A DNA stretch of 20,000 nucleotides. Origin: an uncultured virus (IMG/VR IMGVR_UViG_3300042868_002089) (taxonomy: Duplodnaviria > Heunggongvirae > Uroviricota > Caudoviricetes). How positions within the stretch are numbered: position 1 is the first letter of the stretch; each line of letters starts with the position of its first letter. The notes beneath the pieces are model-generated. The model was not told the origin of the DNA and made no database searches. It saw only the letters and a list, made by a program, of their open reading frames with translations. Made by a program: the position numbers and the translations under genes. The stretch lies in IMG/VR virus record IMGVR_UViG_3300042868_002089, one strand, 5' to 3'. This document shows positions 3,937-16,383 of this stretch, in pieces.

Positions 3937-4629
3937 TCACATTACCTTCTGACGGTATTGGCCAGAGCGGTACGCGTCTTGACGCTCCATACCATCGCCC
4001 AGACGTTTTGCCAACATCAGCGCTTCCTGATACTTGGTGTTGTACATTGTCATCATGTCCGCTTCACCCTTCATGTAGGTGTAGGCTTCCACCAAAGAAC
4101 CGTACAAAAGCACTGAGTCAAAGTTATCACCCAACCATGTCTGGCCGCCTGCCGCAGTCGTAATGGACTCAGGGTAGTAGTAATAGTGCAACTCGACGTT
4201 GTACTCTTGGTTGGGGGTCGGGCCAATGATAAACGTCAGCTCATTAGAAATTGTGGCACCAGTCACAGTGGGACCAAACAACGCGTAATACTTTGGTACG
4301 CCCTTATCATCAGGTACAGGGTACGCTTGACGGATAAAGTTCACGTCCTTGTTCAACAAGTACTCGTACGTGCCGGTGTTCAGGTCATTAGCTGTCACGT
4401 CCGTAATCACCGCCAAGGAATATGTGGCCAAGTAGTCAGTCGGTGCAGACAGGTACTTGTTGTTGGCGGCAATCACGCCCGTCATGTTTTTACGCAATGA
4501 CGGGAACTGGACGGTGTTGTAAATACGCTGCTCAGCTTGCTGAACGAACACGGGTATCTGAGCAATAAAGCTTGCTTCGGTATTTTCCGTGTACGCCTGA
4601 ATAGCGTTGCTGAGTTGCGTATAGTTCAT
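3937..4629 (-). CDS. Putative head-tail adaptor / tail tubular protein
   Basis: 230 aa; AEQRIY, GVPKYYA, GPTP...Y.VELHYYY.P, LLYGSLVEAY motifs; position downstream of capsid genes. Confidence 0.6.
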   Translation of the reverse strand: MNYTQLSNAIQAYTENTEASFIAQIPVFVQQAEQRIYNTVQFPSLRKNMTGVIAANNKYLSAPTDYLATYSLAVITDVTANDLNTGTYEYLLNKDVNFIRQAYPVPDDKGVPKYYALFGPTVTGATISNELTFIIGPTPNQEYNVELHYYYYPESITTAAGGQTWLGDNFDSVLLYGSLVEAYTYMKGEADMMTMYNTKYQEALMLAKRLGDGMERQDAYRSGQYRQKVM

Positions 4630-5449: not shown

Positions 5450-6397
5450 TTACGTGCCGCTTCCAATGTACTGTTGACGAGGCACAAAGCGTACTGCCGC
5501 CTTTTCTTGGTCTTCGCCTGCGGCTCTGTCCCAAGCTTCGTCATATTGTTGCTTCAAAACATCAAGGCGCTGTAAACCCTCGGGCACTTTGAGCGCGATG
5601 TAGTAAGCCAGACCTGCGGCCAAGCAGGGCACAAAACGGAAAGGCACATCCATAGTCTTAGTGCCGCCACCAGCGTCTTGAATACGGCGCATGCGCCAGT
5701 AGACGAACTGATACGTTGTGCCGGGGTTAGGGGTTGGCCACACAGTGATACTGTTCTTCTGAACCAAGCTCATGGCCGCGCCAGTTGTGTGGCTAGCCGC
5801 AGTTGTGCCGTCCTGCCCACGCGTGCAGTTGAGCAAGTACGCAGGTGTAGCGCCACTAGCTGGGGTTGTCTCGTTGTATCCAATCAACTCTGCGCCAATC
5901 TGGATGAAACCAGCAGTTGGCACGCCCACCAAAGAGGTGATTGGAATAGTTGTGGCGGTTGCATTGATGGTCGACTGGACTGTGCCAACCAAAACGCTGG
6001 AGTTACCCGTCAAACGCTGTACCCAAACCTGAATAGGACGGCCTTGGATCAATTTATTTGGGATGGTGGCATACGTGGGCATGCTGATCCGCGTAATCGT
6101 CAGGTCGGCCTGATTATTGGCTACGTTGGCGTTTGTTCGGATGACATGGTCAAGCAAGTCAACAGTGTCGTCCGGGATTGCGTACGTTGGCTGGCCAGTC
6201 ACAAGCGTGATGGTGTTTTGCTCAAACGTCCACATGTTCACGCCACGGTTTGCCCAGTCAGCAAACAGTAAGTTAAGCGATCGACGGGCAGTGCGCAAGT
6301 CATAGCCCGTGCGGAGTTCAGAACCCGCCCGTTCAAAAGCCTCCTCAACCATGTCGTTGAGGTCGAGGTTAAACGAGGTGAGTCCTGAAGTAGTCAT
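5450..6397 (-). CDS. Putative head-tail adaptor / tail tubular protein with an inserted domain
   Basis: 315 aa; ARRSLNLLFADWANRG, GRPIQ, VWPTP, PFRFVPCLAAGLAYYIA motifs typical of podovirus adaptor-like proteins. Confidence 0.6.
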   Translation of the reverse strand: MTTSGLTSFNLDLNDMVEEAFERAGSELRTGYDLRTARRSLNLLFADWANRGVNMWTFEQNTITLVTGQPTYAIPDDTVDLLDHVIRTNANVANNQADLTITRISMPTYATIPNKLIQGRPIQVWVQRLTGNSSVLVGTVQSTINATATTIPITSLVGVPTAGFIQIGAELIGYNETTPASGATPAYLLNCTRGQDGTTAASHTTGAAMSLVQKNSITVWPTPNPGTTYQFVYWRMRRIQDAGGGTKTMDVPFRFVPCLAAGLAYYIALKVPEGLQRLDVLKQQYDEAWDRAAGEDQEKAAVRFVPRQQYIGSGT

Positions 6398-7504: not shown

Positions 7505-7759
7505 TCAGCAATTCCAAGCCCGAAGGCTTTTGTTGATTCTGGAGTTCGGGTCTTTCTTGGCCTTCTCTCCGGTCAGCTTCTTCTTCATGCCTTCCATACG
7601 GGCGCAAAAAGAGTCGCGGCGTTTGCCGCCCTCTGGTTGAGGACGCTTCAAGCCCGGCTTGCCGGGGTTTGCCTTGTTGTACGAGGCCCGTCCCTTGGCG
7701 TTCAAGCCGCCCTTCTCGGACTTCCCCTCTTTGCGTTGCCATGCTGGTGACTTAGCCAT
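7505..7759 (-). CDS. Small basic phage protein (DUF6321-like from memory)
   Basis: MAKSPAWQRKEGK...GGLNAKGRASYN...RRDSFCARM...SRINKSLRAWNC. Confidence 0.7.
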   Translation of the reverse strand: MAKSPAWQRKEGKSEKGGLNAKGRASYNKANPGKPGLKRPQPEGGKRRDSFCARMEGMKKKLTGEKAKKDPNSRINKSLRAWNC

Positions 7760-8036
7760 AAAACACCGTCACTTTAGCGCCGGTCGGCACTGTTACGTGC
7801 ACATCGGTATAAAACAAGATGCCCTCGCCGGGAATCAAGTTCGAAAACGGATTGTTGGTGTTTGCAGGGATATTGAACTGCAAGCGGATAGTGCCAGAAG
7901 CACCGCCGTCACGGAAAATAATATCGCCAGCAGTACCGCCAGACAGGCATTGGTAGCCTTTAACACGTGTGCGTCCAGACTCCATCGTGCCAGTAGCTTC
8001 GATGTGCGAGGACTTTACGTCGGTTTGCATTGTCAT
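7752..8036 (-). CDS. Small beta-rich virion-associated protein
   Basis: ATG 8036 with RBS AAGGAG; ends IPGEGILF...VTVFYG. Confidence 0.65.
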   Translation of the reverse strand: MTMQTDVKSSHIEATGTMESGRTRVKGYQCLSGGTAGDIIFRDGGASGTIRLQFNIPANTNNPFSNLIPGEGILFYTDVHVTVPTGAKVTVFYG

Positions 8037-8050
8037 AATCAAGCTCCTTT

Positions 8051-8070
8051 AAAAACGGGGCCGAAGCCCC
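8051..8070 (-). terminator. Intrinsic terminator after 8080-8388
   Basis: Minus strand GGGGC-UUCG-GCCCC followed by GUUUUU. Confidence 0.75.
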
Positions 8071-8079
8071 ACGGGTTGA

Positions 8080-8388
8080 TTAGCTCAGAGCAGCGCCGAT
8101 AGCGGTAACCCAAGCAGAGCCAGTAGAGATTACAAGGCAGTATTCGTTGTTACCTGCACCATTGTCGCTAATCAAGCGAACTTGGCCAGCATTGCCAGCG
8201 GCAGCGGTAGGCAAAGCGGTTGTCAGAATGGGGGTTAGTTTAGCGAAAGATGCGATTGTTAAGCTGTCAACACTGCTAGCGGCACCAAATGTTGCGTCAA
8301 CAGTAACAGCGCCAGTAGTGCTGTTTGTAGTGATTGATTGAAAGCCGTTCTGCGAGCGAACTGGGCCGTTAAACGTGGTATTTGCCAT
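8080..8388 (-). CDS. Putative capsid-associated fibre/decoration protein
   Basis: 102 aa, MANTTFNGPVRSQNGF...LPTAAAGNAG...STGSAWV; RBS AAGGA; follows the major capsid gene. Confidence 0.65.
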   Translation of the reverse strand: MANTTFNGPVRSQNGFQSITTNSTTGAVTVDATFGAASSVDSLTIASFAKLTPILTTALPTAAAGNAGQVRLISDNGAGNNEYCLVISTGSAWVTAIGAALS

Positions 8389-8399
8389 GATTATTCCTT

Positions 8400-8470
8400 A
8401 CATGCAAGTTGTGGTGTTCTATCTGCATGTCGTCAGCCGGGACTGTAAGAACACCGGGAAAGCCCGGAAT
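8400..8470 (-). ncRNA. Candidate structured cis-regulatory leader RNA (two crossing pseudoknots)
   Basis: Three perfect pairings: 8463-8467/8437-8441 (5 bp), 8448-8455/8413-8420 (8 bp), 8424-8430/8400-8406 (7 bp). The last ends immediately before the SD of 8080-8388. Confidence 0.55.
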
Positions 8471-8476
8471 GAAGTC

Positions 8477-8505
8477 AATATACACGAAAAGAAAAGGGGG
8501 CACAA
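8477..8505 (-). promoter_or_regulatory. Candidate sigma70-type promoter overlapping the capsid terminator
   Basis: Minus strand TTGTGC (8505-8500)-N17-TATATT (8482-8477). Confidence 0.45.
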
Positions 8506-8516
8506 GCCCCCTTTTC
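8487..8516 (-). terminator. Intrinsic terminator after the major capsid gene (possibly bidirectional)
   Basis: 11-bp stem GAAAAGGGGGC/GCCCCCTTTTC with 4-nt loop, followed by a U-tract on the minus strand. Confidence 0.85.
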
Positions 8517-8526
8517 ACAAGTTCAA

Positions 8527-9456
8527 TTAAGAACCTGAAGAACCCCACATACCGAGGGGATCAGACCAGCCGAAGCTATAACGCTCACGGGCTTTGTAAC
8601 GAACGTTACCTGTATCGAAGTCACCGTCCATGCTGTTTTGCAAGGCGATACGCTCGAAATGCTTCATGCCGTTAGGAACGTCGGTCAACAAGTACCAGCC
8701 GTTGCTGTCGGTCAAGAAGTGGTTAACAGTGTAACCTTCAGGGATTGCACCCATCTGCTTCAACGCGTTGATATCGTTGTCAGCAGTAGAAACACGCAGC
8801 TCAGTGTCAAGCAAGCGCTTGGCAACGAACATCAGTGCTGGGGGAACAACCATCTTACGGGGCTTAGCGGCGATCAACAGACCACGCTCGTCCACCCACG
8901 CTGCGATTTGAATCACGGCGTTTTCCAAAGATGTTTCGTTCAAGTCAACGCCAGTTGTTGGGCTGTTGAAGTTCACACCACCGCTAACGAGGGGGTGACC
9001 AACGCGAGTGTTAGAACTGTTGTTGCCGAACAAAGTGACGCCGTCACCGCCCAAGTATGAACCGTTGAAACCGTTGTTGATAACGGAAGCGGCTTTAACT
9101 TGCTTGGTGTAAGACATGGCACGGGCCAAAGCTTTGGTGTAACGTGCAGACAAAGAGTCATACAAGTTATCTTCCACAGCTTCTTCAGTAATACTGAAGC
9201 CCAGAGCGATTGTCTCGTGGTTGTAGCGTGCAGTGAAGGCTTCTTGCGCATTGTCATAGGCAATGGCTTGACCTTCATTCTTGACGGGAGCAGAAGCAAA
9301 GCCAGCAAGCTTTGTCTCTTCTTCGAAGCTACGCTCAGATTTCTCTGTTTCGTAGATTTCTTTGTGCTCTTCGCCGTAGCGAGCGTATTCCATGCCGAAC
9401 AAAGCGTTCAGGCCGGGGAGCAACTCTTTAAGTAGTTGTGCGCGTGAAATAGCCAT
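8527..9456 (-). CDS. Major capsid protein (HK97-fold; Mu gpT-like family)
   Basis: 309 aa, MAISRAQLLKELLPGLNALFG...YKARERYSFGWSDP; strong RBS AAGGAG; follows scaffold and precedes a strong terminator. Confidence 0.88.
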   Translation of the reverse strand: MAISRAQLLKELLPGLNALFGMEYARYGEEHKEIYETEKSERSFEEETKLAGFASAPVKNEGQAIAYDNAQEAFTARYNHETIALGFSITEEAVEDNLYDSLSARYTKALARAMSYTKQVKAASVINNGFNGSYLGGDGVTLFGNNSSNTRVGHPLVSGGVNFNSPTTGVDLNETSLENAVIQIAAWVDERGLLIAAKPRKMVVPPALMFVAKRLLDTELRVSTADNDINALKQMGAIPEGYTVNHFLTDSNGWYLLTDVPNGMKHFERIALQNSMDGDFDTGNVRYKARERYSFGWSDPLGMWGSSGS

Positions 9457-11984: not shown

Positions 11985-12165
11985 CTTCAACTTTCTTTAG
12001 CAGGTCAAGAACATAACGCTCTGCAAGGGCTAGACCCGAAATAATCCCGCAGAGTTTTTGGTATTCCTCAAATGAGCGACATGCACCGCCAGCCAAGTCA
12101 TCGGCATAGTTGTTCATGTCCCTACGTATTTGGTCGCGCAATACGTGTGCGAAGTCTTGAATCAT
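11968..12165 (-). CDS. Small helical hypothetical protein downstream of portal
   Basis: 65 aa, DDLAGG...FEEYQKLCGIISGL; 4-nt overlap with the portal stop. Confidence 0.7.
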   Translation of the reverse strand: MIQDFAHVLRDQIRRDMNNYADDLAGGACRSFEEYQKLCGIISGLALAERYVLDLLKKVEDADNH

Positions 12166-14660
12166 TTGATTGGTTTAGGTTGGTTTCTGGATGCGTTCTG
12201 CAGTGCTGCAGTCCGCGCTTGCAATTCCGTTTGGGATTTGCTCTTTGCGATGTCGATGCCCATCTGGACACCGGCACGTTCTTGTTCAAACTGGGATTTG
12301 GCTTGGCTCTCTCTGATCTGAGCACCAACGCGCATGGCTTCCAATTCCAGATGACCTTTGACCTTTTGCTCTTCCAGCTCTTGCTTGTCTGCGGCAATTG
12401 CAGCGTCTGCGGCAATCTTCTTCTCTTTGAGTTGAAGCTCTTGCGCCTTGAGCTGAAGCTCTTGCTGTTGCATCTGAACGATGGGGTCCTGCGCCATCTG
12501 CTGAGCCTGCATTTGAGCGGCTTGTGCTTGGCTTTGCTGGAGCACCTGATTGGCCGCCTGAGCCATCATGCCGGACAAGGCAATCTCGATCTCTGGTGGC
12601 AGCTTCTCGTCTTCGGGCGGTAGTGGCATACCGAGTTGTTGCTCGATCTTCTGGCGCATCTGATAGCCAACGTGCTCTGCAATGTGCGCTGACATGCCTC
12701 CCATGATCTTGGCCGCTTGTGGGTTCTGACCAATGAACTGCTGAATCATGGGGTCTTGCATCACAAGCATGTGCACTTGAATGTGGGCTGTGTGATCTTG
12801 ATGCAAGAACGCTTTCATGGGCTTGCCCGTCAGCGCATTCTGGTTCTCCTGCACTGGGTCGGTAGGCTTCATGTCGTCCTCGATCGGCACAAGCTTCTCA
12901 GCATTCTTGATGCCCAAGACGTTGAGCATCCCGCGGTGTAGCTCTGGCAAGTTGTAGATATCAGGAGCCATCTGCGCCATCTGAATCACAGCTTGGTACT
13001 GAACAACGCGCTGAGACATGGTCGCAGCGTTGGGGTCAGACACGGGGATCACGTCAACCAAGTCGTAGTCTGCCTTCTTGGCTTTGCGAGTGCCGTACGC
13101 AGGATCGTACGTGTAGTCTGGGTCTGTGTAGTCGCGGATGATGTTCTTGAGCAGCTTCAACTCTTGCTTCAGAGCAAAGTGCACACGGGCCTGAACAGCC
13201 GTCATGACTTTAAGCTGGCGCTCAAGCAGAGCTAGCGTCGTGCCCACAGGAGCGTTAGCGCTCATGTCGGAGACCTTCATGTCAGCCGTTGCAGCGAAGC
13301 GGCGGCCTTCCTCCACAATGTTCTGCATCAAGTTATACAGAGTAACACTTGGCTCCTTGTACGGCAGAGGCAGGATGCTGTCACGGATGTTGCCAGAGGC
13401 TACGTCGACGTCTCTCCACTCTCCGGGGGCAATCGGTGTGTCATCACCTTTAATGCGAAGTCCGCGCGATTTGAGTCCACCGGGAAGATTAGATAGCGTT
13501 CCTGCGTCAACCAATTGACGCATAAGGCTTGTGGCCGACTTGGCAAAACCACCGATAAGATGGAAGAGTCCAAAACCATAAGCTCCGAATCCGGGGATAT
13601 ATTGGTAGTGTACAAAGTGCTGGCGCTTGAGGCGAAGTTCATCATCTTCATTCCAGTTGCGGCGTATGGACAGAATGTCATTGGTGCCCTTAATGATGGT
13701 TACAACGTACGGCAGCATGATGCCGGTCTCTTCACCATCGTCGTCCACATCTTCGTAGCCGTCAAGGTTCAAGTCAACGTGGCACTCATAGATGGTGTAG
13801 CGGTCGTCGTTCAGGTCGTTAAAGCCTGTCTCTTTATCCTTGGCTTTCTGAATGTCCGTGCGGTCTTTAGGCGCATCAGGCAACTCGATGTCCAAATAAA
13901 ACCCAGCTTGCTGAAGCTTGACGATCTCGTTCTTGGTCTTGCGCATGACGTGCGTGATGCGGTGGCAAGTGTCGAGGTCTGTCGCGCCGTATGGGAGCAA
14001 CATGTCTTCTGCTGGGATGAACATGGAGACTTGACGGCCAAGCGCTGGGTCGAAGTACACCTTCTTAAATGCAGAGCCCGTAGCTGGCAGTGACCACAAC
14101 ATGCGCTCATGCTCAGAGCGATACTCAGTCATGTTCTCAGTCAACTCGAAGTTCATGTCGTCTTCAACGTTGGCCGCTTTCTCTTTGATCTCAGGCGTTT
14201 CTTTACCAATGATCTTGGTACGCACAGGCCCTTGGGCTGGGAACGTCTCTGTGATTGTCTCGGCTTGGAAGCGAACAACAGCTTCTGTAATCATTGGGTG
14301 GAACACACCGCAAGCGCCTTGCCAAGGTTCTGTGCGTTCCTCGATCTGCAGGCCCAAGAGCTTCAGTCCATCAACGTACGTCTTCTCCCACTCTTTGCGT
14401 GAGCCCTTGTCGTTGTCAATATCTGAGACCAAGTCCCCAGCAAGGGACTGCATCGCGCCATCGTCCATGTACTCGGCCAAGTTGTCACTGAAGTCTTCTC
14501 CGTCGTCTTCGTCTGGCTTAATCTTTATCTCCAGCCCGTCCATGCCAATGGTGACTTCTTCGGGATCAACGATCTCGATCTCCAAGGGGGACTCTTGCTG
14601 CGCCAATTCTTCAATGCCAACGGGCTGTTGGAAGAGCGCTTTGTCGATGTTCGTTGCCAT
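12162..14660 (-). CDS. Portal protein (P22-like, long Gln-rich coiled-coil C-terminus)
   Basis: 832 aa directly downstream of terminase; HPMITEAVVRFQAE, GSAFKKVYFD, YGFGLFHLIG, LRQ-like MRQLVDAGTLSNLPGG motifs. Confidence 0.88.
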   Translation of the reverse strand: MATNIDKALFQQPVGIEELAQQESPLEIEIVDPEEVTIGMDGLEIKIKPDEDDGEDFSDNLAEYMDDGAMQSLAGDLVSDIDNDKGSRKEWEKTYVDGLKLLGLQIEERTEPWQGACGVFHPMITEAVVRFQAETITETFPAQGPVRTKIIGKETPEIKEKAANVEDDMNFELTENMTEYRSEHERMLWSLPATGSAFKKVYFDPALGRQVSMFIPAEDMLLPYGATDLDTCHRITHVMRKTKNEIVKLQQAGFYLDIELPDAPKDRTDIQKAKDKETGFNDLNDDRYTIYECHVDLNLDGYEDVDDDGEETGIMLPYVVTIIKGTNDILSIRRNWNEDDELRLKRQHFVHYQYIPGFGAYGFGLFHLIGGFAKSATSLMRQLVDAGTLSNLPGGLKSRGLRIKGDDTPIAPGEWRDVDVASGNIRDSILPLPYKEPSVTLYNLMQNIVEEGRRFAATADMKVSDMSANAPVGTTLALLERQLKVMTAVQARVHFALKQELKLLKNIIRDYTDPDYTYDPAYGTRKAKKADYDLVDVIPVSDPNAATMSQRVVQYQAVIQMAQMAPDIYNLPELHRGMLNVLGIKNAEKLVPIEDDMKPTDPVQENQNALTGKPMKAFLHQDHTAHIQVHMLVMQDPMIQQFIGQNPQAAKIMGGMSAHIAEHVGYQMRQKIEQQLGMPLPPEDEKLPPEIEIALSGMMAQAANQVLQQSQAQAAQMQAQQMAQDPIVQMQQQELQLKAQELQLKEKKIAADAAIAADKQELEEQKVKGHLELEAMRVGAQIRESQAKSQFEQERAGVQMGIDIAKSKSQTELQARTAALQNASRNQPKPIK

Positions 14661-14841: not shown

Positions 14842-16383
14842 CTAGTAGTATTCGTACTTCTTACGGCGGAAAAGCTCAATATCTTCTTTCTCGTCCGTGT
14901 CCAGTGTAATAAAGCCGCCTTGCCTAAAGCGTAGCAGCGCCTGTGTTGTGGTGTCCACGTAGTCGTCGTGCTCTCCAACTGGGAAAGCCGCTATCTCTTC
15001 AATCACTTCCCGTGCCCAGCGTGTGTCTGGTGCCCAGACTTTACCACTGCTGAATAAATCCGCAACTGCGTTGACACGCACCATCTTGTCGTTGCCGCGG
15101 CTTGGGCTGAACTCCTGCACCGGTATGCCCAGCGCCCTGAGTTCCTGAATCAGCGGAGCGCCAGCGGCCTTCTTCTCCACGATAAACGCGTCGGGGTCCC
15201 ACTCTTTGTAGTGCTTGAGCGCAATGGTCTTAAGTTCAGGGAACGCCATCCTGTCCTTGAACGCGTCGAGCAATATGAGCTGGGGCGTGTCGTTCTCTTC
15301 CTCGTTGTAGAAGATGCCCCACGTTGTGCATGCCGAATAGTCAGAGTTGTTCTTGGTCTCAAACGCCGTGTCCCACGACTGGATGATGTATTCGCACGTT
15401 GGCGGCTCGTCACTCTCCCAGATTCTCCAGAGCTTGCGGCCAATGATGGCGCTGTTCTCGCTTGTGGGCTGCTGCATGTACTGCGCGTTCCAATACCTCG
15501 GGTCAAGCGACGCCTTGGTGGACTTTAAGGACGCCAGTGGCCACTGCTCTGGCCACAGAGACTTCTCGTTCTCCGTGTCTTCATTCAGAATAGCTGGCAG
15601 CTCCACGATTTCCCATGGCACAGCCTCTGGATTCTTGGCTTGGTAGTCAATCAAGCGCCCAGTCAGGTCAAGCAAGGACCATCTGGTCATAATCACAATG
15701 ATCGCACCACCGGGCATCAGACGTTGCAAGGGGCCAGTCTGGAACCAAGACCAAGCCGTGTCAAAAGCCAGCCGACTGTTGGACTTTACATCTTGTTCTG
15801 AATGAGGGTCATCAATGACGAAAAGATCAGCCCCACGGCCAGCCAGTGCGCCACCAACACCAGCAGCATAATACTGCCCACCAGCAGAAGTCGACCACTT
15901 ACCGGCAGCTTTCTGATCGTCTGCGACCATTGTTTGAGGGAAAACTTCACGATACTCCTCCGAGTCAATCAAGTTACGTACGCGCCGACCGAAATCTTCA
16001 GACAGGCCCGCAGTGTGCGTGCCCATGATGATCTTCTTATTAGGGTATTTACCTAGAAAGTACGCAGGGAACAGGTATGAGCTGAACTCAGACTTACCCA
16101 TACGTGGCGCGATGTTGATAATCACGCGCTTTTTCTTGCCCTCGACCACATCTGTGAAGATTTTGGCCAGCTTCCTGTGGTGCGGCCCGATCTTAAAGCC
16201 CGGATAGACGCTCTGGGCGAACCCTAGCATGTTTGTTTTGGCCGCTTGCAAGCTGGCGCGTTGTTCACGCATCTCCAAATCTTGGAAAAGCTCCATCTTT
16301 TCTGCCAGCGACATGTGCGGCAGTGCCTTGGCCATGGCTTCTAGCTCAAGCTTGCTCAAGGTTGTGAAGTTTTCAGGCTTCAT
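14842..16383 (-). CDS. terL: Terminase large subunit
   Basis: Walker A region APRMGKSE, Walker B LFVIDDPH, coupling motif IMTRW, nuclease acidic residues SWDTAF and HDDYVD. Confidence 0.95.
   Translation of the reverse strand: MKPENFTTLSKLELEAMAKALPHMSLAEKMELFQDLEMREQRASLQAAKTNMLGFAQSVYPGFKIGPHHRKLAKIFTDVVEGKKKRVIINIAPRMGKSEFSSYLFPAYFLGKYPNKKIIMGTHTAGLSEDFGRRVRNLIDSEEYREVFPQTMVADDQKAAGKWSTSAGGQYYAAGVGGALAGRGADLFVIDDPHSEQDVKSNSRLAFDTAWSWFQTGPLQRLMPGGAIIVIMTRWSLLDLTGRLIDYQAKNPEAVPWEIVELPAILNEDTENEKSLWPEQWPLASLKSTKASLDPRYWNAQYMQQPTSENSAIIGRKLWRIWESDEPPTCEYIIQSWDTAFETKNNSDYSACTTWGIFYNEEENDTPQLILLDAFKDRMAFPELKTIALKHYKEWDPDAFIVEKKAAGAPLIQELRALGIPVQEFSPSRGNDKMVRVNAVADLFSSGKVWAPDTRWAREVIEEIAAFPVGEHDDYVDTTTQALLRFRQGGFITLDTDEKEDIELFRRKKYEYY

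Follow-up and report, generated by a model that had tools for sequence, protein, structure and literature searches.

A predicted double-pseudoknot leader RNA in front of a capsid-accessory gene of uncultured phages, a candidate complex variant of the orphan motif Mu-gpT-DE

In the SAM-II, preQ1-II and SAM-V riboswitches a compact pseudoknot is placed at the ribosome-binding site, with a single-stranded linker running along its first helix, and leaders of the SAM-II/preQ1-II type either carry the Shine-Dalgarno (SD) sequence within a ligand-stabilised helix or triplex or possess a conserved anti-SD alternative. A phage mRNA leader with a 5' pseudoknot is that of T4 gene 32, where the pseudoknot lies far upstream and seeds the binding of the single-strand-binding product along a stretch without structure. 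The 5' stabiliser stem-loops of the ompA type are simple hairpins that keep the extreme 5' end of the message paired and have no conserved unpaired bases. Closest to the present case is an orphan motif of the Rfam database, Mu-gpT-DE (RF03012), reportedly from the Weinberg et al. 2017 survey (PMC5737381, the main text of which does not use that name). Here we analyse a 20,000-nucleotide stretch of DNA (hereafter the window) from an uncultured virus of the Caudoviricetes (IMG/VR record IMGVR_UViG_3300042868_002089), the minus strand of which carries a structured leader between a major capsid protein gene and an open reading frame (ORF) of 102 amino acids (aa). Our comparative sequence analysis indicates that this leader is a real feature and a new, more complex variant of Mu-gpT-DE.

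The initial annotation of this locus, made from the sequence alone, had proposed three helices (P1 crossing P2, and P2 crossing P3) followed directly by the SD and the start codon. Reading of the minus strand from 8650 to 7950 found all of these parts at the positions claimed for them, and a fourth helix, the hairpin Px, was recognised in addition. The parts are as follows:

8463-8467, minus strand: P1a, CCGGG, the 5' strand of pseudoknot helix P1 (sequence)
8454-8458, minus strand: proximal CCCGG, the partner of P1a in an alternative 5' hairpin, overlapping the first 2 nt of P2a
8448-8455, minus strand: P2a, GGUGUUCU (sequence and covariation)
8446, minus strand: junction A, directly before Px (junction plus Px, 8434-8446)
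8445-8443 and 8436-8434, minus strand: hairpin Px, CAG paired with CUG (3 bp)
8437-8441, minus strand: P1b, CCCGG, within the Px loop UCCCGG
8431-8433, minus strand: junction A-C-G between Px and P3a, its A and C invariant
8424-8430, minus strand: P3a, ACAUGCA (sequence and covariation)
8421-8423, minus strand: junction G-A, near invariant, and U8421, which replaces the P2-closing C of the relatives
8413-8420, minus strand: P2b, AGAACACC (sequence and covariation)
8407-8412, minus strand: linker L3, ACAACU, which must cross P2, its last two bases C-U conserved
8400-8406, minus strand: P3b, UGCAUGU (sequence and covariation)
8386-8399, minus strand: SD AAGGA (8399-8395), spacer and AUG (8388-8386) (sequence)

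The fold spans positions 8467-8400 of the minus strand (∼70 nt) and consists of four helices, P1, P2, Px and P3. With the strand order P1a-P2a-P1b-P3a-P2b-P3b, P2 is crossed by P1 and P3 by P2, as had been noticed from the outset. P1 and Px make up one pseudoknot, a loop-to-5'-strand pairing like that of a kissing loop, and P2 and P3 make up a second one, of the H-type, each of the two lying inside the long loop of the other; near-invariant unpaired junction bases (A; A-C; A-G-A) hold P2, Px and P3 together. P2 is extended in most relatives by a tenth pair, G-C or A-U, that closes it; in the window a U-U mismatch (8447/8421) occupies this place.

The crossing arrangement of P1-P3, with its 20 bp, exceeds chance expectation, as none of 1000 dinucleotide-preserving shuffles of the 76-nt leader reached this total. 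Triples of perfect helices in the same crossing order amounted to a maximum of 18 bp and a mean of 4.5 bp in the shuffles (n = 1000), and a crossing pair totalling 15 bp was found in 0 of 1000, the maximum being 14. The nested minimum-free-energy fold of the leader is ordinary (z = −0.46), an unremarkable value because the folding program cannot represent pseudoknots.

Relatives of the locus were collected by three protein-seeded scans of IMG/VR, using the best 80 of 581, 391 and 568 confirmed relatives, respectively, and excluding duplicate leaders as well as those with less than 90 nt of upstream sequence. A pattern sort of the deduplicated leaders yielded 94 class A-like (class A being the window type), 31 class B, 9 class C and 4 other leaders, and the covariation set comprised 95 distinct relatives from uncultured phage contigs. 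Two covariance models were used, the first being built from 39 class A leaders with a structure of P2 and Px only (yielding alignment A2) and the second having a structure of P1 and P3 only (yielding alignment A4). The first model gave 56 matches in 81 sources, never more than one per source, and matched 93 of 95 deduplicated sources, missing L009 and L187, both of which have other leaders. The second matched 95 of 100 sources, including the GenBank phage DSL-LC04 and a contig of a Polaromonas metagenome-assembled genome (MAG); it missed Planktothrix phage Pag-Yong1, L009 and three further loci, of which two were of class B and one of class C. Across all model searches there was a maximum of one leader match per source (e.g. 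one copy in a 46,965-bp uncultured virus record that matches the window and is estimated to be 60% complete), and at all inspected loci the match ended at the start codon (AUG) of a gene homologous to the 102-aa ORF.

Whether P1-P3 covary across homologues, a question raised by the initial annotation, could be answered positively on both alignments, including for each helix on the alignment that had not been fitted to it. On A2, P1 was 79.8% paired with 5/5 pairs changed on both sides, and P3 was 83.6% paired (84.0% on A4) with 6/7 pairs changed on both sides. On A4, the corresponding values were 91.8% and 10/10 for P2, and 99.6% and 2/3 for Px; P1, which is part of the model behind this alignment, reached 89.3% and 5/5. 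In 84 of the 95 relatives, at least 5 bp of a P1-type helix can form with the Px loop. For the whole structure on A4, 90.1% of 2337 cells were paired, compared with 66.4% upon shuffling (0 of 500 shuffles reached the observed value) and with only 19.6-43.0% when the partners were slid, and the covariation score was 0.612, versus 0.199 for shuffled and at most 0.119 for slid controls. The shuffle control disregards relatedness, whereas the slid controls retain it and score far lower. Altogether, 23 of the 25 pairs in the four helices change on both sides; for example, the middle pair of Px is AU in 53 relatives, UA in 17, CG in 16 and GC in 9, and the P2 closing pair (33-71) is GC in 77 and AU in 14. 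G-U pairs occupy 97 of the 2337 cells (summed from the A4 pair table) and would be A-C on the opposite strand, which identifies the RNA as the sense strand of the ORF. This comparative evidence supports the double pseudoknot as a real RNA structure under selection, far beyond chance.

While all helices drift among the 95 relatives, six unpaired junction bases are near-invariant. Conservation in 90-95 of the 95 sequences was observed for the unpaired A34, A57, C58 and G69-A70, for A68 at the 3' end of P3a and for the last base of L3, with A57, C58 and G69 present in all 95 and A70 in 93. The Px pairs C35-G56 and G37-C53 are conserved as well (A34, C35, G37, C53 and G56 in 93-95 of 95). The linker between P1a and P2a is 7 nt long in 65/95; L3 measures 5-7 nt in 80/95, with U as its final base in 93/95 and C as the preceding one in 84/95.

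A scan of Rfam, as the initial annotation had advised, returned no match for the window's RNA, either to RF03012 or to any other family, in 7900-8700 or in 8375-8485 (E up to 10), and only chance-level rows for 15 class A loci (E up to 5); what that annotation had missed is a simpler homologue, already listed as Mu-gpT-DE. The class B leaders are RF03012, with scores of 75.4, 60.9 and 53.4 bits (gathering score, 49), and the leader of the cultured Roseobacter phage CRP-901, directly before gp56, scores 72.3 bits on the same model. In the RF03012 consensus, which ends at the AUG, a hairpin is enclosed by an outer helix of 4 bp (CCUG/CAGG) that continues into the SD. The junction G-A-[C..G hairpin]-A-C-N9-G-A-C is found in 31/31 class B leaders, and class A shares this grammar in the form G-A-[C..G]-A-C-N8-9-G-A-C, N8 being P3a (in the window the closing pair is U/U and not G-C). 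Each of the two RNAs follows a Mu gpT-like capsid gene with its terminator and ends at the SD and AUG of a gene from the same small-protein family (N-terminus MAxTTFSGP in class A and class B alike), and each is found among relatives of phages HTVC023P and CRP-901. They differ in that the outer helix of 4 bp is extended in class A to 8-10 bp (becoming P2), the hairpin of 5-8 bp is shortened to 3-4 bp (becoming Px), a new 5' extension pairs with the hairpin loop (P1), and a segment inserted before the SD pairs with the 8-nt segment (P3), which results in the double pseudoknot. Based on the shared junction grammar, class A is best read as an elaborated, pseudoknotted form of Mu-gpT-DE; it is placed as a new variant and not as a member of RF03012 because it fails the model of this family. 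Proteins that are 72-84% identical to each other follow class A, class B or class C leaders, hence the leader classes appear to be interchangeable before one gene. An orphan motif is in this way tied to a much richer pseudoknotted relative, both of which precede, as 5' leaders, the genes of a single family of small capsid-accessory proteins in which the N-terminus is fixed and the C-terminus can be swapped, and the invariant junction that they share is now defined as a target for mutation. The simple form is available in a cultured system (Roseobacter phage CRP-901, strain FZCC0083), and the function of the leader is therefore directly testable.

Rfam types RF03012 as 'Gene; sRNA' and names it for the upstream gene, and on these grounds the element could be regarded as a separate trans-acting small RNA (sRNA), or else as a 3' element of the capsid mRNA. 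The RF03012 consensus itself, however, extends through the SD to the AUG. In addition, a terminator and a −10-like site stand between the element and the capsid gene, no terminator separates the fold from the ORF, and the leader follows the N-terminal domain of the downstream gene across at least four different C-terminal domains. We consider an sRNA or 3'-element role highly improbable.

Several side observations were made on the other leader types. In class B, a conserved UAGCCA of Mu-gpT-DE is complementary to the UGGCU contained in AUG-GCU at the beginning of the gene (L087:351-403, CRP-901 (L247):1923-1975 and 29 other class B loci). All 31 class B genes have GCU as their second codon, although only 50% of their other 317 Ala codons are GCU, and the second codon is variable in class A genes; two class B leaders read UUGCCA, with no compensating change. 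This pairing is absent from the Rfam structure of RF03012, and by means of it Mu-gpT-DE may hide its own start codon. If so, both the SD and the start codon of Mu-gpT-DE would be hidden in an unannotated pseudoknot. Class C (9 distinct leaders, L092, L093, L099, L101 and L146 among them) represents a third type, located ∼80 nt before the AUG at position 401, in which a covarying hairpin with a UUUGCA-type loop is followed by UUGA-CCUCG-GACA-CGAGAGG overlapping the SD. It precedes a 69-aa version of the same protein, and yielded no Rfam match at E ≤5 beyond chance-level rows. Yet another leader, with a long GACCCGGGG/CCCCGGGUC hairpin, is present in the GC-rich cyanobacterial phage Pag-Yong1 (L242:2413-2516); it is matched by neither covariance model nor by Rfam, and the gene that follows the capsid gene in this phage begins with a related N-terminus, MSTTLFPAPV.

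The placement of the class A fold with respect to the SD and AUG is also conserved. The features involved in the window, besides the SD and AUG listed above, are:

8500-8505, minus strand: −35-like TTGTGC in the loop of the capsid terminator (sequence)
8491-8516, minus strand: intrinsic-terminator-like hairpin after the capsid gene, an 11-bp stem with a T run (terminator scan)
8477-8482, minus strand: −10-like TATATT of an inferred promoter, start near 8470 (sequence)
8080-8388, minus strand: the 102-aa ORF, a small virion-module protein with the N-terminus MAxTTF[SN]GPVxSxNGF
8051-8070, minus strand: terminator-like hairpin GGGGC-UUCG-GCCCC with U5, closing the unit (read from the sequence, unlisted by the terminator scan)

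The fold abuts the ribosome-binding site, as had been claimed: in 91 of the 95 relatives an SD-like tetramer begins immediately 3' of P3b, and the distance from P3b to the AUG is 11-12 nt in 77/95. In three of 95 (L186, L194 and L204) P3b is UGAGG and is itself a part of the SD. The leader heads a short unit bounded by the two terminator hairpins (8516-8491 and 8070-8051), and the −35-like hexamer does lie in the loop of the first of them. Of the putative promoter, TTGTGC, a 17-nt spacer and TATATT are all present, but a sigma-70 scan of 7900-8700 returned 0 sites. Conservation among the relatives is confined to a −10-like hexamer, which is located 5-10 nt upstream of P1a in 78/92 by position and in 69/92 scores at least 4/6 with A2 and T6. 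With the −10-like hexamer 5-10 nt before P1a, the paired P1a would constitute the extreme 5' end of the transcript. As a side observation, CUUGUGC recurs in the loop of the capsid terminator at many loci, where it would also provide a −35-like element, spaced by 17 nt from the −10-like hexamer. Two loci are devoid of the 5' half of the leader: in L047 (2436-2503) the −10-like site is fused directly to the P3a/P2b region, and in L001 (628-715) the capsid coding sequence continues straight into P2a. These half-leaders are natural deletions or assembly chimeras.

We propose, with about even confidence, that the element acts in cis, as a leader governing the initiation of translation and the stability of the message. 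It would form part of the transcript that encodes the small capsid-accessory (cement or decoration-like) protein and would act post-transcriptionally. Its RNA would start a few bases before P1a, and the fold would bury the 5' end, providing protection from 5'-end-dependent decay, while the rigid fold directly against the ribosome-binding site would set the ease with which the 30S subunit engages. The output of the accessory protein would thereby be fixed relative to that of the capsid protein. The paired extreme 5' end, provided that transcription starts as the −10-like site predicts, likens the leader to stabilisers of the ompA type, and either P1 or the alternative 5' hairpin would keep that end paired. 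Unlike these simple hairpins, the leader has conserved unpaired bases, and its start is an inferred one.

The same surroundings could be taken to suggest a transcription-level element, comparable with the put RNAs of phage HK022, which are made just after a promoter and act on RNA polymerase: a promoter-like site immediately precedes the RNA, and the unit that follows ends in a terminator, with further structural genes behind it. Transcription would then continue past the 8070-8051 terminator to reach the head and tail genes downstream. Translation is favored instead by the tightly conserved distance to the SD and AUG and by the overlap that the corresponding helix of Mu-gpT-DE has with the SD, and the Rfam search revealed no similarity to any known antiterminator RNA. 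We regard this alternative as improbable.

Contigs from four lake RNA libraries cover the leader (X1, 8277-8552; X3, 8370-8520; X2, 8392-8451). They bear on a further alternative, a self-cleaving ribozyme that would trim read-through capsid transcripts and thereby create a separate 5' end for the accessory gene. Phages often carry small ribozymes, and a small interleaved double pseudoknot with invariant junction bases would suit such a function. On the other hand, the contigs span the element uncut (which is weak evidence), neither the window nor the 15 class A loci matched any ribozyme family in Rfam, and cleavage would be unnecessary given the promoter-like site just upstream. This explanation appears very unlikely.

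A number of points weigh against a translation- and stability-controlling leader as proposed above. The direction of the effect is one of them: the SD and AUG are free in the window's pseudoknot, whereas in Mu-gpT-DE and in 3/95 class A members the helices overlap the SD, which would leave it partly paired. Next, four helices and six near-invariant unpaired bases would exceed what a plain stabiliser or spacer needs, and such a pattern of conservation is met more typically in binding pockets and active sites. The energies calculated for the nested halves of the pseudoknot in the window (−10.6 and −13.0 kcal/mol) sum to a value a little more favourable than that of the best nested fold (−20.7 kcal/mol), which pairs part of P2a with the SD, and the pseudoknot may therefore not be the sole state. 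Finally, the sigma-70 scan found no promoter, and the lake RNA-library contigs across the leader carry no information on transcript starts, ends or strand and may be DNA carry-over; as one of them bridges the proposed start, read-through transcription and DNA are indistinguishable in this case.

Some of these points would be accommodated by a sensor, in which the junction forms a pocket for a small molecule, an ion or a protein (of phage or host origin) and binding stabilises or melts the pseudoknot, thus switching translation in the manner of a riboswitch or a protein-bound operator. Unpaired bases conserved in 90-95 of 95 relatives while the helices drift, a compact pseudoknot adjoining the SD, a nested fold of similar energy that engages the SD with part of P2a, and the overlap of helices with the ribosome-binding site in Mu-gpT-DE and three class A members are all in line with such a mechanism. 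So is the competing hairpin 8467-8463/8458-8454 that had been noticed in the window, where it is indeed present. It cannot coexist with P1 or with the two first base pairs of P2, and at least 5 bp of it can form in 59/95 relatives, but its covariation is much weaker than that of the main helices (77.1% paired versus 70.6% shuffled). The sensor is opposed by the absence of any Rfam riboswitch match in the window and the 15 class A loci, and by the nature of the regulated gene, which encodes a virion protein and not a metabolic or transport function. Moreover, in nested ensembles of the 95 relatives no region pairs with the SD by at least 2 bp in more than 4 of them; without a consistent SD partner there is no conserved anti-SD and therefore no conserved expression platform. 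Taken together, we view a sensor as a possible but rather unlikely function.

The parallel originally drawn with the SAM-II and preQ1 riboswitches and the T4 gene 32 leader holds for architecture and fails in the lack of an Rfam match, of a conserved anti-SD and of a product resembling a nucleic-acid binder. The class A leader departs from SAM-II, preQ1-II and SAM-V in that the SD lies outside the helices in 91/95, in the virion-protein gene that it precedes and in the extra interleaved pseudoknot P1/Px. As opposed to T4 gene 32, the class A fold is in contact with the SD, and nothing in the product points to nucleic-acid binding: it contains 2 Arg and 1 Lys, i.e. 3 basic residues in 102, which, together with the lack of a nucleic-acid-binding domain, makes self-regulation unlikely. 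A broader proposition, that the element represents a new functional RNA class (a sensor such as a riboswitch for a metabolite, an ion or a signal of the infection state, a ribosome-docking element, or a knot-like 5' cap blocking 5'-to-3' or 5'-end-dependent RNases) of which Mu-gpT-DE would be the minimal form, is put forward tentatively, as its truth seems to us doubtful. Were it true, the RNA would serve many uncultured podophages of fresh water and the sea in the timing or dosage of a capsid-accessory protein. It concerns intricate 70-nt folds that are conserved in abundant uncultured aquatic phages, and such RNAs have often proved to be ligand or ribosome binders. Our literature search retrieved no description of this RNA, a large unnamed IMG/VR candidate set being only partly searchable. 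That set, the 8,495 unnamed candidate RNAs from IMG/VR reported by Fremin et al. 2023 (PMC10690425, which also mentions the T4 gene 32 leader), may include a nested part of the motif, and no match was present in its searchable tables.

The label of capsid-accessory protein for the 102-aa product rests on gene position and on the annotations of others. Its homologue in DSL-LC04, a metagenome-assembled phage (PMC10611076), is annotated as 'cement protein' and has a class A leader in front, and the Pag-Yong1 gene at the same position is annotated as 'minor capsid protein'; the DSL-LC04 and CRP-901 homologues were located via the capsid gene. The protein collection contains 2550 relatives, none of them named. 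No match to the 102-aa protein was obtained among Pfam families, in a PDB profile search (0 matches) or by tblastn against 50,697 phage records (E ≤0.001). Its AlphaFold2 model is beta-rich (mean predicted local distance difference test score, pLDDT, of 69.4) and retrieved nothing from the PDB with Foldseek at E ≤0.001, and the ESM Atlas gave unnamed viral clusters, the nearest named ones (PTL_trimer, 0.92; Mtd_N, 0.87) being leads only. Within the family the N-terminus is conserved and is joined to at least four unrelated C-terminal parts, all four types being preceded by class A leaders. The conserved N-terminal portion, seen in the window and at loci L023, L064 and L077, measures 16-45 aa, and total lengths in the family are 69-112, 122, 133 and 172-177 aa. 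This modularity suggests a fixed capsid anchor with swappable outer domains.

The leader and its gene reside in a head and packaging module on the minus strand of the window, which also holds further small ORFs and two SU10-adaptor-like proteins. The named members of the module are:

8527-9456, minus strand: major capsid protein gene, 309 aa (phrog_371 major head protein, E = 4.3e-17; PF25209 Phage_capsid_4)
12162-14660, minus strand: portal
14842-16383, minus strand: large terminase

The capsid ORF additionally matches PF10124 (Mu-like_gpT) with 24.2 bits at a cut-off of 20.1. By capsid DNA the nearest named phages, at 65-68% identity, are Planktothrix phage Pag-Yong1, Synechococcus phage MinM2, DSL-LC04, Pelagibacter phages HTVC023P and HTVC027P, and Roseobacter phages CRP-901 and CRP-902. 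A scan of genome contigs for a host yielded two loci, both with class A leaders, on short MAG contigs (one of Polaromonas and one of an alphaproteobacterium), which are probably binned phage DNA. The next ORF (7752-8036, 94 aa), which has no PHROG or Pfam match, is served by an SD of its own (AAAGGAG) directly beyond the terminator hairpin at 8070-8051. Further along the module, ORFs 3937-4629 and 5450-6397 both match SU10_adaptor (PF24175; E = 3.6e-20 and 1.4e-9, respectively), pointing to a possible duplicated adaptor in the neck module.

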